From positions 44,883-108,882 of IMG/VR virus record IMGVR_UViG_3300025400_000011: a DNA stretch of 64,000 nt; one strand, given 5' to 3'. The stretch is from a virus. The position numbers and the translations under genes are program-made. Below the pieces are notes generated by a model that saw only the letters and a list, made by a program, of their open reading frames with translations, made no database searches and was not told the origin of the DNA. Shown piece by piece: positions 48,581 to 61,101 of this stretch (positions within the stretch are counted from its first letter, which is position 1; each line of letters opens with the position of its first letter).

Positions 48581-49006
48581 ATGAACAATAAAATTACTTG
48601 TACCAGGTATCACGACCTATCAGTTGGACACAGAGTGTGTGGTCAAGGCGGTAAGTGTGAAAATCTTCACGGTCATAACTACCGTATACACCTCACAGTA
48701 GAAGCAGAACAGTTAGATACTGTTGGTCGAGTTATGGACTTTTCTGTTATTAAAGACAAGTTTGTTATATGGTTAGAGCAGCAATGGGATCATAAGTTCT
48801 TGGTTTGGGAAAACGATCCGTTTACAGATACATTAAAAAACTTAAACCCAGAAGGTGTTGTTGTAGTGCCTTTTAACCCAACTGCAGAAAACTTAGGTCA
48901 GCACTTAGTCAACGTTATTGGACCTCAGCAACTTGCTGGTACTAATGTTAAGCTTGTTAAGGTTAATATTGAAGAGACTCGTAAGTGTAGTGTTACTGTT
49001 GAGTAA
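48581..49006 (+). CDS. queD: 6-carboxy-5,6,7,8-tetrahydropterin synthase
   Basis: GHR...CENLHGHNY...VMDF...DH...PTAENL...EET. Confidence 0.9.
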   Translation: MNNKITCTRYHDLSVGHRVCGQGGKCENLHGHNYRIHLTVEAEQLDTVGRVMDFSVIKDKFVIWLEQQWDHKFLVWENDPFTDTLKNLNPEGVVVVPFNPTAENLGQHLVNVIGPQQLAGTNVKLVKVNIEETRKCSVTVE

Positions 49007-49943
49007 TATTCATTAACACGCCATCTCCAGAGCCCTGCTTTGCTTTAGCGGTACCGCCTGTGTACTTGTATATAACTTGAGCATTAGTAGTTTTAGGTAC
49101 AGATATATGTAGTACGTTTCCACCTACTGATGACTTTAATATAGCATCAGTGTTTTCTTCAACGAATACAAACTTGTTAGGATCGATAACCTCGATAACC
49201 TTAATATCTTCTGGTTTAATACCGTTATTGTTGAGATTATCTTTTTCGTGGCTATCAGTTTTTTGTTTTGCTACATCAAATACTGGTTTAGGACTATCAA
49301 GTAATAGGTTATTACCAACACCACCCTCATCCATATTAAGAATAACAGGAGGAGAAGGCATTGTTTGAGCGGAAGCTACATAGGTACCTTCAAATGCTTT
49401 ATCTAAAGTAACTTTACCTGCTGCTGTAGATACGTCAATACGACCAACTATGTACTGACCGTTTCTTCTATCTAATGCCGGTAGTAGAATAACCAAGCTT
49501 CTACCCATTTCATCTACAGCGAGACTCACATCAGTACCACGAACAGCTATACTCGCTGTAGGTGTAGTAACTGCAACACTATTGCTATTATGATGAGCTA
49601 ACTTACCTGAAGTATATCTCAATGTACCTAAAGCAGCCTTAAAGCCTATTTTACCGTTACCTGTGGAAGGATCATACACAAACGTATCTATTAAGAGTTT
49701 ACTGTGCTCTGTTACTTTTACTTCTGTATCATCTGCAAACTTTATATTAGTACGAGCTTCAAGTGTCTCCACAGTATCATTCATTTCTACCCCAGTCTTT
49801 AACTCGCACTTAATAAATTCACTACCTCTGGTTATACGGGTAGGTCCTGTAATAGAAGTAATCTGTCCTGCAGCACCAAATGCTACAGCACATGACAATA
49901 CTGTTAGTAGAAAGAATAGTATTGTAAGAGTAACAAGTTTCAT
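48993..49943 (-). CDS. Exported FecR-domain protein
   Basis: Signal peptide; D.VET...F.D.T.V.V.E.S.L.ID.FVYDP...G.LRYTSG...TPTASIAVRGT; minus-strand TAAATA 5 nt upstream. Confidence 0.85.
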   Translation of the reverse strand: MKLVTLTILFFLLTVLSCAVAFGAAGQITSITGPTRITRGSEFIKCELKTGVEMNDTVETLEARTNIKFADDTEVKVTEHSKLLIDTFVYDPSTGNGKIGFKAALGTLRYTSGKLAHHNSNSVAVTTPTASIAVRGTDVSLAVDEMGRSLVILLPALDRRNGQYIVGRIDVSTAAGKVTLDKAFEGTYVASAQTMPSPPVILNMDEGGVGNNLLLDSPKPVFDVAKQKTDSHEKDNLNNNGIKPEDIKVIEVIDPNKFVFVEENTDAILKSSVGGNVLHISVPKTTNAQVIYKYTGGTAKAKQGSGDGVLMNITQQ

Positions 49944-49958
49944 AGTAATATTTACATT

Positions 49959-49982
49959 AAAAAAGCCCGCCTAAGCGGGCTT
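49959..49982 (-). terminator. Intrinsic terminator after curlin-like gene
   Basis: AAGCCCGC/GCGGGCTT stem; A-run on + strand is the U-tract on - strand. Confidence 0.8.
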
Positions 49983-57400: not shown

Positions 57401-57427
57401 TGGTGGAGGTTAATCCGATTAATCCAG

Positions 57428-57460
57428 AAACCCCTACAGCAATGTAGGGGTTTTTATTTT
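57428..57460 (+). terminator. Intrinsic terminator (GCAA tetraloop)
   Basis: AAACCCCTACA-GCAA-TGTAGGGGTTT plus T-run. Confidence 0.85.
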
Positions 57461-57503: not shown

Positions 57504-57511
57504 TATAAATA
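57504..57511 (+). promoter_or_regulatory. Consensus T4 late promoter TATAAATA
   Basis: 10 nt upstream of ATG 57522. Confidence 0.7.
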
Positions 57512-57521
57512 TATTTGACCT

Positions 57522-58589
57522 ATGGCAAACACAATTGAATCCTTAGCCGCACGTTTAACTGCGGTAGAAACCAAATTAACCACGCTGGCAGGCCTACAGG
57601 CTCCTGGCGTTGATGCTGCTAGCATCCAAGAACTAGACACTCGTCTTACTATTGTTGAAAAAACAGTAAACGATCTCGTCGCAAAACCAGCTGCTGATGC
57701 AGTTGCTGCTATTGTAGCTGCTCCAGCTACCCAAGCACCAGCTCCAGTTGATGCTGTCGTCGCTTTAAGCCCGTCTGCTGCAGTACCTGCTGCTGCTGAT
57801 ATTGTATCAGATGTAGTTGCTGCTCAAGCCGCTGCACCTGCTGTTGCTAACCCAGATGTTGCTGCAGCTGTTAGTGCCGCAGTTACTGCTGTAGTTACAG
57901 CTGATCCTGCTACAGTACAAGATCCAGTAGCAGTTACAGCTGCTATTACTGATGCAGTTGCTGCTGCTCCTGCTATTACAGATCCTGTTCAAGCTCAAGC
58001 TGCTACTGATGCTGTTGCTGCTGTTGTTACAGCTGCTACAGGCACAGCTCCAAGCGATACTACTACAGCCGCTGTTGCTGACGCAGTTGCTGCTTGTCCA
58101 GTAACTAATACAGTTGCAGATATCGTTGCAGCTGATCCAGTTCCACCTGCTACAGCTCAAGCAGTTGCTGCAAGCGTAGTAGCAGATAGCTCAAGCGCAG
58201 ATGTTCCTGCTGCTGCAACCGTTGTAACTAACGTTGTTGCTGATGTTGCACAAGCACCTGCAGCAGATCATCCTGATGTTGTTGCTGCTGTATCAACAGC
58301 TGTTGCTGCAGTTGTTAATGCAGACCCTGCTACTGTAACTGATCCAGTTGCTGTAACAGCTGCTATCACTGATGCAGTTGCTGCACTACCTGCTCCTGCT
58401 GCAGCAGTACAAGACCAAGTAACAGCTGCTGTTGTTAATGTTGTTGCTTCTGCTACTGGTGTTGATACAGTTGCTCCTGCTGTTGTTGCACAAGTTGCTG
58501 ATGCAGTACAAGCTGATCCAGCACTTGATGCTATTGCTGATCGTTTAACAACAGTTGAAACACAACTCGGTACGTTGGGAAAATCGTAA
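57522..58589 (+). CDS. Ala/Val/Asp/Thr/Pro-rich protein with terminal coiled coils (short form, 355 aa)
   Basis: No F/W/Y; RLTAVE, RLTIVE and RLTTVE motifs; internal duplication. Confidence 0.85.
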   Translation: MANTIESLAARLTAVETKLTTLAGLQAPGVDAASIQELDTRLTIVEKTVNDLVAKPAADAVAAIVAAPATQAPAPVDAVVALSPSAAVPAAADIVSDVVAAQAAAPAVANPDVAAAVSAAVTAVVTADPATVQDPVAVTAAITDAVAAAPAITDPVQAQAATDAVAAVVTAATGTAPSDTTTAAVADAVAACPVTNTVADIVAADPVPPATAQAVAASVVADSSSADVPAAATVVTNVVADVAQAPAADHPDVVAAVSTAVAAVVNADPATVTDPVAVTAAITDAVAALPAPAAAVQDQVTAAVVNVVASATGVDTVAPAVVAQVADAVQADPALDAIADRLTTVETQLGTLGKS

Positions 58590-58666
58590 CCAGCGTGGGG
58601 CGTATTGCATCAAATGCAACACGCTGGGCTATAAAAATTAATCCGCTCAAAGGTTGGAAGTTTTAA
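58577..58666 (+). other. Predicted -1 programmed ribosomal frameshift and 27-codon extension
   Basis: G GGA AAA at 58577-58583 in the correct phase; 6-nt spacer; stem CCAGCGTG/CACGCTGG; -1 frame open to TAA 58664-58666. Confidence 0.7.
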
Positions 58667-58671
58667 TATTC

Positions 58672-58701
58672 AAGAGCTCCAGAAATGGAGCTCTTTTTTT
58701 T
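58672..58701 (+). terminator. Intrinsic terminator (GAAA tetraloop)
   Basis: AAGAGCTCCA-GAAA-TGGAGCTCTT plus T-run. Confidence 0.9.
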
Positions 58702-58752
58702 GGTTATTGCCAAAGAGTGCAATTTGGAAGTGGAGATATTTTATAAAGCCTA

Positions 58753-58760
58753 TATAAATA
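58753..58760 (+). promoter_or_regulatory. Consensus T4 late promoter TATAAATA
   Basis: 7 nt upstream of ATG 58768. Confidence 0.7.
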
Positions 58761-58767
58761 TAGTAGT

Positions 58768-61101
58768 ATGAAACAAATCCTAAAACTAATCGCATTAACT
58801 ATATTGACGTTTGCAGTTAGTACTTCACTTATGGCGGGCGGTGGCTCACCAACAGTTGTTAGTACAACAAACGGCACTCCAATAGTAACCGTAACAACTA
58901 CTCCAGTAGATGTAGTTGCAACTAACGCTTACGGTTTCTCTATTGATAATACATATGTTAATACAACTACCACGACGATCCCTACTACAGTCGCTTTATA
59001 TAGTGATAATAGTTCAGTAACAACAAACGGCTCGCCAGTTGTCACTGTAAACCATGGTACAATACCAGTACAGACTGTCACAACAGGTAATGTCACTACA
59101 ACATCAACAGCACCTCGCACTGTTACATCAACAGCTAATGGTGCTACTATTGCTACAACATATCTTGATACAGTAACAACGATTACACCGAAAACTTGGA
59201 CAACTGTTAACGGTGCAACAACATCTGTAACAGGTAACGCTGTCGTAACTACTACACCAGCAGTAACACCTTCTACAGTTGCTACTACGACTAATGCAGT
59301 AGCTGTAACTACATCAAACGGAACACCTATCGTAACATTAGCTAATTCTTATGCCCCTGTTACTACTACAAGTGGTGGTTCAACTATTGTTACTACTAAC
59401 TTAAATGTATTAACAACTACAACAGTACCAGTTGCTACTACTACAGTAACAACCCCTATGACGGTTATTGCAGATAGTACAGGTAATACTATTAGTACAG
59501 TATACGGTACACCAACATCTAATACAAATGTATCATTTGCAGTTTCAACAGCTAATAGCTCTTCTCTTTATACAGTAGCTACTACATCTAACCAGTCATC
59601 TACAGTTACTAAGAACGGTACTGCGGTAGTTGGTGCTACTATTGCTTATTCAACTGCTAATAGCGTTGATGCAAGTAACAATCCAGTAGTTAAGACTTAT
59701 AAGCTGACAACTACAACAACTACTACTCCAGTAGATACAGCTACAACAGTTACACCTGTTACCGTTACTAAAGATGCTAATGGTAATCTTATTAGCACAT
59801 ATTATGGTGCACCAACAACTACAGACAATGTAGTTAACAATGCAGTTGTTACAACAGCTAATGCTTTATACAGCACAGCTACAACAACCCAGAACGTTGC
59901 TAGTCAAACAGTATTTGGTAACCCAACAACCACATATGCAAGTGTAAATGGTACAGCTGCTTCTACTACTGCTTATTCGCAAGCTAAGGCAAAGTCAGCT
60001 GATGCTAAAGTGTTAAACATCGCTAAGACGACTACAGTTACTACTGTTACACCAGTAACAACTACTGCTACAACAACTACACCTGTTACCAATGTAACTA
60101 CTAATACGGCTGTTACTACTACAGTATATGCTGATGGTACTACACCAACACTAGTTACATATAGTTCACCAGTAGTTACAGAAAATACATCAGTATCGAC
60201 TGCTAAGGTAGTTACCAACTCAACACAAACTGCAGTAACTAATGCAGTAGCTAACTATAGCACTCGTATCGATCAGTATTCATATCTACAGGCTGCAAGT
60301 CGTCGTTATAATATGCTTGTTGATTCTAACCCGTTAGATCGCAACTATGGCGGTACTTGGAATGCTAACAAGAATGACGGTTGGAACTCTTATCTAACAT
60401 ACACCCGTACAAGTAGCAATACAGTTGATACGTATAAGACTTCAAGCAACACATTCACTATTGGTGCTGAGTCGTTTGTAACTGCTGACGTACTATTCGG
60501 TATTAAGTACGATTTCGTTAATGCTAATATTAACGGTGATCAAGCTACTGGTACATTACAAAAGCATCACTTAGGTTTGTATAACTTAACCACGTTCAAC
60601 AATCTATTAGTATTAAAGTCTGATCTTGGTTTTGCTTATGACCGTTTTGCTAATACCCACACATTAGCTGCTCTAAACTATGCTAATGCTGGTAAAGGTA
60701 ACGGTAAAGACATCTGGTTAAATGAGCGTTTATATTCAAAGAGCTACTTTGGTTTTGCTCCTTTTGTCGGTGGTCGCTTTGAAACAAGCTCACTTGATGC
60801 TATTGCTGAAACAGGCGATGCTTATACAGCTCAATCATTTACAGCCACTAAAGTAACACGTGCTGCAGCAGAAGGTGGTTTACGCTTTGACTATCAGTTC
60901 GGTGATGCTTTCAGAGTTATTGCTGAAGGTGGTTACTTAACACCTACTAAGTCAAAAGGTATTGACGGTATTACATCATACAAGCTTAACTTGCAAGCTA
61001 CACCAACAAAGACCATTTCTGGTACTATTGGTGCAGGCCAGCAAAAGCAAGCAACGTTAACTGATACTAACCTAACAGCTGACGTCACATTCAAGTTCTA
61101 A
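58768..61101 (+). CDS. Autotransporter-like outer-membrane protein with Thr-rich passenger
   Basis: Signal peptide; ~480 aa Thr/Val-rich repeats; ~250-aa amphipathic beta-strand C-terminus (PFVGGRF, GGLRFDYQF) ending VTFKF. Confidence 0.75.
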   Translation: MKQILKLIALTILTFAVSTSLMAGGGSPTVVSTTNGTPIVTVTTTPVDVVATNAYGFSIDNTYVNTTTTTIPTTVALYSDNSSVTTNGSPVVTVNHGTIPVQTVTTGNVTTTSTAPRTVTSTANGATIATTYLDTVTTITPKTWTTVNGATTSVTGNAVVTTTPAVTPSTVATTTNAVAVTTSNGTPIVTLANSYAPVTTTSGGSTIVTTNLNVLTTTTVPVATTTVTTPMTVIADSTGNTISTVYGTPTSNTNVSFAVSTANSSSLYTVATTSNQSSTVTKNGTAVVGATIAYSTANSVDASNNPVVKTYKLTTTTTTTPVDTATTVTPVTVTKDANGNLISTYYGAPTTTDNVVNNAVVTTANALYSTATTTQNVASQTVFGNPTTTYASVNGTAASTTAYSQAKAKSADAKVLNIAKTTTVTTVTPVTTTATTTTPVTNVTTNTAVTTTVYADGTTPTLVTYSSPVVTENTSVSTAKVVTNSTQTAVTNAVANYSTRIDQYSYLQAASRRYNMLVDSNPLDRNYGGTWNANKNDGWNSYLTYTRTSSNTVDTYKTSSNTFTIGAESFVTADVLFGIKYDFVNANINGDQATGTLQKHHLGLYNLTTFNNLLVLKSDLGFAYDRFANTHTLAALNYANAGKGNGKDIWLNERLYSKSYFGFAPFVGGRFETSSLDAIAETGDAYTAQSFTATKVTRAAAEGGLRFDYQFGDAFRVIAEGGYLTPTKSKGIDGITSYKLNLQATPTKTISGTIGAGQQKQATLTDTNLTADVTFKF

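Follow-up and report, generated by a model that had tools for sequence, protein, structure and literature searches.

A programmed −1 ribosomal frameshift appears to extend the product of a late phage gene located in a 64,000-nucleotide stretch of virus DNA (hereafter the window; bases 44883–108882 of the 108.9-kb IMG/VR virus record IMGVR_UViG_3300025400_000011, which is about 58% complete), the source being an uncultured freshwater T4-like phage. The open reading frame (ORF) of this gene codes for an acidic protein of 355 amino acids (aa) and carries the slippery heptamer G GGA AAA at its very end, followed by a predicted hairpin and an open −1 frame that would lengthen the product to 381 aa (Table 1). 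Judged from related loci, it is highly likely that these elements form a genuine programmed −1 frameshift cassette at the end of a monocistronic late gene of T4-like phages, and one mRNA of this gene very probably gives two proteins. As the comparison of loci shows, the slip site, the structure and the tail are each under selection, and they are kept or lost together.

The original prediction for this stretch, made from its letters, had proposed that an aromatic-free 355-aa protein is converted by a programmed −1 shift to a 381-aa form with a basic, tryptophan-containing tail; homologues and linked losses of site and tail now support this proposal. The end of the ORF and the X XXY YYZ phase of the heptamer, the stem 6 nucleotides (nt) past it with its outer and inner arms, and the −1 peptide with its stop 5 nt before a terminator were all found where they had been placed, and the 355-aa product indeed contains no Phe, Trp or Tyr. 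The context had also been called new, and so it is with respect to the gene family: the mechanism is a textbook −1 frameshift, and the family is a new place for such a shift.

Conservation of the slip site

In the window, a stop closes the −1 frame 18 nt before the heptamer, with no start codon from there on, so that the frame can be entered by a shift alone. The openness of this frame is by itself weak evidence, and it is the comparative data that carry weight. Site counts cover 87 related loci with a complete gene end. GGGAAAN in phase was found at 73 loci, with −1 tails of 11–27 aa, and GGGGAAG at six loci, with tails of 18 aa; the site is broken at seven loci, where the tail is cut short or aberrant (2–14 aa, median 5), and one locus has a different ending for which the tail was not scored. 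Homologues lacking the heptamer or having a closed −1 frame were to count against the original prediction; 73 of the 87 loci keep both the heptamer and the open tail. Among the 52 distinct heptamer-plus-tail sequences, 46 have an intact or GGGG site, every one of them with a tail of at least 11 aa, and the four AGG-type sites have tails of 2–5 aa. The zero-frame stop follows directly after the heptamer in 49 of the 52 and one codon later in the other three.

The heptamer is built largely by synonymous choice. In the rest of these genes, 19% of the leucine codons end in G and glycine is encoded by GGA in 17% and by GGG in 1% of cases, the joint expectation for the required combination being 3.3%, whereas the terminal Leu-Gly-Lys is written NNG GGA AAN in 40 of the 52 distinct sequences. 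It is therefore the bases, and not the residues, on which selection acts. G GGG AAG instead of G GGA AAG occurs in L024, L026, L029, L038, L051 and L063, all with full 18-aa tails, and requires at least four independent changes in the quick tree that served as phylogeny. Since GGG otherwise accounts for 1% of the glycine codons of these genes, the four-G run seems to be accepted as a second kind of slip site. In the same tree, broken sites have at least three independent origins, each with a damaged tail. A broken slip site (Leu TTA or Gly GGC) was seen in L037, L045, L048, L049, L077, L079, L081 and L082, where the main ORF is intact, and thus the short isoform alone can evidently suffice. 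The family thereby offers a natural variant series comprising A AAG, A AAA, A AAC and GGGG sites, differing hairpins and independent losses.

Near the end of an ORF of at least 100 aa, and with a −1 extension of at least 10 codons, only one other in-phase heptamer was found in the 108.9-kb record. This is A AAA AAG in the plus-strand ORF 49597–49974, which runs antisense to the real gene at 48993–49943, and for that reason the heptamer is probably meaningless.

Translation of the tail

The tails bear the signature of a translated sequence. Second codon positions are near-invariant at hydrophobic sites, and first and third positions vary. The ratio of non-synonymous to synonymous differences (pN/pS) is 0.67 for the tail in the −1 frame versus 1.0 and 1.13 in the other frames; the corresponding values for the end of the main ORF are 0.41 in its own frame versus 0.86 and 1.52. 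The 52 distinct sequences have in common the pattern hydrophobic-Thr/Ser-small-hydrophobic-basic-basic-Trp-Phe, and the tails have a mean net charge of +2.9 and about three aromatic residues. In short-type tails the helical hydrophobic moment is 0.56 versus 0.21 for strand periodicity, and lies above that of shuffled sequences. The tail of the window has a net charge of +5, with two Trp and one Phe, and is modelled by AlphaFold2 (AF2) as a helix with a predicted local distance difference test score (pLDDT) of 75–83. The 355-aa product has an isoelectric point of 4.05, and its model is all-helical, with a mean pLDDT of 78.8. The tail does not seem to be an in-frame tag shared with other proteins of the phage, as neither a tail hidden Markov model (HMM) nor a motif scan gave anything significant in the six frames of the 108.9-kb record.

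The closest relatives allow the cassette to be followed at short distance. Scans of viral and metagenome sequences gave 17 close loci with complete ends and six distinct tails. In all 17 the heptamer is in phase, the zero-frame stop comes zero or one codon later and the −1 frame is open for 20–27 codons; likewise, the spacer measures 6 nt and the stem arms read CCAGCGT and ACGCTGG in all 17. Compared with the window, L002 has 97% and L003 86% identity in the main ORF, and the tail region is much more diverged, the tails of the window and L002 being about 50% identical, with all indels there in multiples of three. The clade of the window forms a deep, fully supported branch of the quick tree, in which seven of seven members are intact. 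The gene is almost identical in L010, a metagenome contig of 1319 bases, but its frame breaks after 97 codons, probably through an assembly or sequencing error in this short contig.

The downstream hairpin

The hairpin of the window has a predicted energy of −21.7 kcal/mol over 50 nt, and the 90-nt region one of −25.6 kcal/mol, with a z-score of −2.5 against dinucleotide shuffles. A hairpin lies 4–9 nt past the heptamer in nearly all intact sequences (mean z −2.2), its sequence differing by clade. The original prediction had named a covarying stem and an open −1 frame in homologues as points to check, and both were found. In 18 sequences with a homologous short hairpin, 95% of the alignment cells pair, compared with 25–40% when the partner is slid, and three pairs are changed on both sides. 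In the RNAalifold consensus of the clade of the window the outer 7 base pairs (bp) are invariant and one inner pair is changed on both sides.

The spacing of the conserved arms is 3 nt in the short type versus 24 or 36 nt in the long type (58598–58619 in the window; L090:3582–3617), always in whole codons. Long tails are whole-codon expansions between the stem arms, and hence the hairpin loop and the peptide insert are the same DNA.

A pseudoknot had been suggested in the original prediction, and in the sequence of the window the bulge 58598–58602 can indeed pair with 58644–58648. The pairing is not conserved at a comparable place in any of nine relatives: eight of them lack it, and the only pairable 5-mer of L003 lies immediately behind the 3′ arm of the stem. 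The pseudoknot was therefore rejected. Hairpin 58590–58627 was also considered as an intrinsic terminator and dismissed, as it has no T-run and a contig from an RNA library runs through it.

Distribution of the family

A protein search returned 71 clusters, mostly of 214–215 aa and nearly all ending in Leu-Gly-Lys or Leu-Gly-Asn. A profile scan of viral contigs gave 65 loci, the contigs measuring up to 524 kb. None of the 71 protein clusters has the tail fused in frame, and consequently both products seem to be needed. More distant loci of the 355-aa type, L089–L097, have the same cassette; their identity to cluster P0005 is about 50%, and that of P0005 to the window protein (P0001) is 45%. 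In homologues with identities as low as about 45–50%, the heptamer is in phase, the hairpin is present and the −1 frame is open and conserved. P0071 and P0005 end differently, one with a 23-residue in-frame extension unlike the tail and the other with Asn-Arg-Trp-Glu-Asn-Asn. The family falls into size classes of 214, 312 and 355 aa that differ in their middle part, and the 355-aa protein has an internal duplication of a segment rich in Ala, Val, Pro, Thr and Asp.

The searches point to a family that is confined to viruses and occurs in T4-like phages. No relative was found by DNA and protein searches of the deposited-phage collection, or by a scan of 185,579 bacterial and archaeal species genomes. 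Pfam and PHROGs contain no family for the 355-aa protein, Foldseek gave no match at E ≤ 0.001 against PDB and BFVD, and the ESM Atlas returned virus hypothetical clusters only. A scan of viral contigs with P0003 gave no match.

Transcription unit and genomic context

The features of the gene and its surroundings are collected in Table 1. Because a terminator-like hairpin closes the upstream unit, the gene forms a transcription unit of its own. The putative function of the TATAAATA box as a promoter follows from what is known of T4 late promoters. A Shine–Dalgarno sequence is not visible before this gene, nor before the next one (58768–61101), which has TATAAATA 7 nt upstream of its ATG (region 58753–58767). 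If the boxes, at 10 and 7 nt from the ATG, work like T4 late promoters, both mRNAs would thus be nearly leaderless.

Table 1. Features at and around the frameshift gene (window coordinates).
Feature	Position	Strand	Remarks
Terminator-like hairpin, end of upstream unit	57426..57455	+	
T4-late-promoter-like box TATAAATA	57504..57511	+	10 nt 5′ of ATG; sequence reading
ORF, zero frame (P0001), 355 aa	57522..58589	+	Acidic, aromatic-free, predicted all-helical; ends TTG GGA AAA TCG TAA (Leu-Gly-Lys-Ser-stop)
Slippery heptamer G GGA AAA	58577..58583	+	X XXY YYZ phase, codons 353–354
Spacer, 6 nt	58584..58589	+	Last sense codon TCG and zero-frame stop TAA (58587–58589)
Stimulatory hairpin (predicted)	58590..58627	+	8-bp outer stem 58590–97/58620–27; inner stem 58605–58610/58614–58619
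−1 extension (P0002)	58583..58666	+	27 new codons 58583–58663 and TAA 58664–58666; trans-frame product 381 aa
Intrinsic-terminator-like hairpin and T-run	58672..58703	+	5 nt past −1 stop; hairpin with T-run at 58672–58695

The product of the gene 58768–61101 is a 777-aa exported Thr-rich protein. Its gene adjoins the frameshift gene also in L002, L003, L013 and L018, and the two form a syntenic pair within the clade of the window. Acyl- and glycosyltransferases are further neighbours in the window, which also carries collagen-like tail fibre genes. Relatives carry genes for a Gp23-type capsid protein and a T4-type scaffold, on account of which the phages are regarded as T4-like. At most loci (flanks of L024–L088) the family gene adjoins a metallophosphoesterase, glycosyltransferases of the GT2/GT4 type or PstS, and at six loci it directly follows the genes for a gp22-like scaffold and Gp23 capsid protein. 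No tRNA gene, and hence no phage tRNA able to modulate the shift, was found in the record.

The stretch is present in many freshwater DNA runs and in six lake metatranscriptome runs. Contigs from four RNA libraries cover the gene and start at 57529–57534, which gives a weak hint at the TATAAATA promoter box. One RNA-library contig of an L002-type variant extends 61 nt past 58596, through the hairpin. Stretches without RNA-contig cover (57450–57493, and beyond 58637 on the window's own variant) carry no weight.

Comparison with known frameshift systems

The heptamer G_GGA_AAG is listed as highly shift-prone in Escherichia coli and is the site of lambda G/GT, where one mRNA gives two products at 30:1, the long form being the minor one (PMC5009743). 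The present cassette resembles it in having the same type of heptamer near the 3′ end of a late phage gene, with two products predicted. It differs in the place of the gene, which is not between the tail tube and tape measure genes, and in the lack of a match to any chaperone family in Pfam or PHROGs; the original prediction had likewise held that the protein is not a tail assembly chaperone, which agrees with the missing family match and with the other genes found as its neighbours. Furthermore, the −1 part is here a tail of 11–27 aa and not a separate domain, and a conserved hairpin follows the site. In T7 and T3, ribosomes shift to −1 within the final codons of the late gene 10A/10B, which leads to a minor form extended at its C-terminus (PMC5009743). 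A terminal shift with an extended minor form would be common to both systems, as far as can be read from sequence in the present case. Unlike gene 10A, however, the gene does not encode a capsid protein: the model of its product is all-helical without a fold match, and Gp23 has a separate gene in relatives; in addition, the T7 heptamer is of the G GU type and the extension is shorter here.

The cdd gene of Bacillus subtilis is also listed as a terminal −1 frameshift (PMC5009743). The present family is similar in that the stop comes zero or one codon after the heptamer in 52 of 52 distinct sequences and the extension is short. In cdd (Mejlhede et al. 1999), ribosomes reportedly shift at the final sense codons, beside the stop, and the protein gains a short extension at its C-terminus; the site is reportedly the hexamer CGA AAG with a Shine–Dalgarno-like stimulator upstream. 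In contrast, a full heptamer and a downstream hairpin are found here, in viruses and conserved across a large family. The tau/gamma shift of E. coli dnaX uses a heptamer ending in A AAG and a downstream hairpin, and the shifted ribosome stops almost at once. The bacterial type of heptamer and a downstream hairpin as the stimulator are shared with this system, whereas the dnaX shift gives a shorter product and the shift described here would give a longer one.

Proposed mechanism and alternative explanations

In the proposed mechanism, the ribosome would decode GGA (Gly353) and AAA (Lys354) with the base of the hairpin 6 nt downstream at the mRNA entrance and the zero-frame stop one codon off. 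In a fraction of ribosomes both tRNAs would slip back by one base onto GGG AAA, and these ribosomes would pass the hairpin and read 27 more codons in the −1 frame, up to the TAA at 58664–58666. Ribosomes that do not slip would terminate at 58587–58589. The two products would be the 355-aa acidic, aromatic-free, all-helical protein and the 381-aa form with the basic tail.

Several observations weigh against the cassette as interpreted above. The pN/pS of 0.67 for the tail is only moderately low, and the distances are near saturation. The +1 frame is likewise open for about 20 codons in the clade of the window. Conservation of RNA and of peptide is partly confounded, because the stem arms encode the conserved Thr-Ser-Val and Arg-Trp. 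The site of the window has A AAA and not A AAG, which is the shiftiest in E. coli. The RNA contigs give weak support, since they cannot reveal transcript levels or ends and RNA libraries can contain DNA. Finally, the six GGGGAAG variants keep full tails despite the poor re-pairing expected for the A-site tRNA, and the real event may then be a slip in the P site.

Such a shift of a single tRNA on G GGR or A AAR, provoked by a slow zero-frame stop (a ‘shifty stop’) and with the hairpin only adding to it, would yield the same products. We regard it as a serious, although fairly unlikely, alternative at this lower level. The position of the stop directly after the heptamer in 49 of the 52 distinct sequences and one codon later in three, the origin of GGGGAAG on at least four occasions, always with a full tail, and the use of GGG seven times at the slip position all fit with it, this last codon making up 1% of the glycine codons elsewhere in the gene. 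However, in 40 of the 52 distinct sequences X XXY YYZ is complete, down to the Y run, which a pure glycine P-site slip would not need, and the stop of the window lies one codon further off. We infer that the two tRNAs slip in tandem, rather than one alone in the P site beside the stop, and the canonical tandem slip, aided by the hairpin and by the stop close by, is the best reading of the site. A highly improbable explanation dispenses with recoding and takes the region for an untranslated 3′ end whose conserved hairpin serves in stabilisation or processing, the heptamer and the open −1 frame being by-products. Part of the residue conservation is indeed due to the arms of the hairpin, which is the best conserved element; divergence is much faster in the tail than in the main ORF (about 50% versus 97% identity between the window and L002), and the +1 frame of the window is also fairly open. 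Against this stand the synonymous construction of the heptamer in 40 of 52 sequences where 3.3% is expected, the second-position conservation at hydrophobic sites outside the stem arms, a pN/pS that is lower in the −1 frame only, and indels that are without exception multiples of three. Moreover, truncated tails occur precisely at the loci with a broken heptamer, and the tails share charge, aromatic residues and helical periodicity despite differing hairpin sequences. Even more improbable is that the base change already exists in the RNA, through transcriptional slippage on the run of G or of A, or that the tail is a small ORF with an initiation of its own. Runs of three G and four A are present, and a GTG codon lies inside the tail of the window, but runs of 3–4 bases are far below the lengths of known slippage sites, the RNA contigs have no indel at the heptamer (although contigs drop rare variants), no start codon lies between the upstream −1 stop and the heptamer, and relatives have GTT, GTA or GTC in place of the internal GTG.

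With the frameshift taken as the preferred explanation, the tail may, tentatively, be a C-terminal amphipathic helix that tethers a minority of the subunits of an oligomer to a membrane or to a different surface of hydrophobic or acidic character. MinD and FtsA have membrane-targeting elements of this kind at their extreme C-termini, namely short basic, aromatic amphipathic helices, and the tails might work in a similar way, with no homology implied; the likeness would be clear for the tails of the short type. They differ in that the helix is given to a fraction of the molecules only, by recoding, and in that the tail of the window has weaker amphipathicity and contains Pro and Gly. It counts against this role that the case for an anchor comes from the composition of the tails alone, and that the tail of the window has Asn-Pro and Gly and a low moment in its best 18-residue segment. 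Owing to this Pro, this Gly and the low moment, the reading as an amphipathic anchor is firmer for the short type than for the window. Somewhat unlikely, and compatible with a real frameshift, is a docking peptide that fixes a minority of the subunits to a component of the virion or prohead, as the frameshift extensions of capsid and tail proteins do. The gene comes directly after those for a gp22-like scaffold and Gp23 in six related loci, it is preceded by a late-type promoter box, and the protein is acidic and helical like the scaffold components of T4. At most loci, however, the neighbours are a metallophosphoesterase, glycosyltransferases or PstS and not structural genes, and the protein has no likeness to any structural family or fold.

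Implications

For T4-like phages, in which the bypass of gene 60 is probably the best known recoding event, the cassette adds a well-supported one. In full-text literature searches, neither a frameshift in this family nor an amphipathic tail that phages obtain by recoding came up in any paper. Automatic annotation misses the longer isoform, the tail being present in none of the 71 predicted protein clusters. It is a speculative and rather improbable suggestion that the shift sets the ratio of soluble to membrane-tethered forms of an abundant, strongly acidic, helical protein working with the phosphate-stress and lipid-renovation genes found at its flanks in most related phages (PlcP-like phosphoesterase, glycosyltransferases and PstS). 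If this were true, the phage would coat or organise part of the host membrane late in infection, and the hairpin would double as coding sequence, expansions of its loop directly lengthening the anchor, as in the clade of the window. The natural variants are a ready comparative set of combinations of slip site, adjacent stop and hairpin in non-model hosts. For the family itself, the tail provides a functional handle on an otherwise featureless virus-only protein, to which the shift would supply its only aromatic and its most basic residues.

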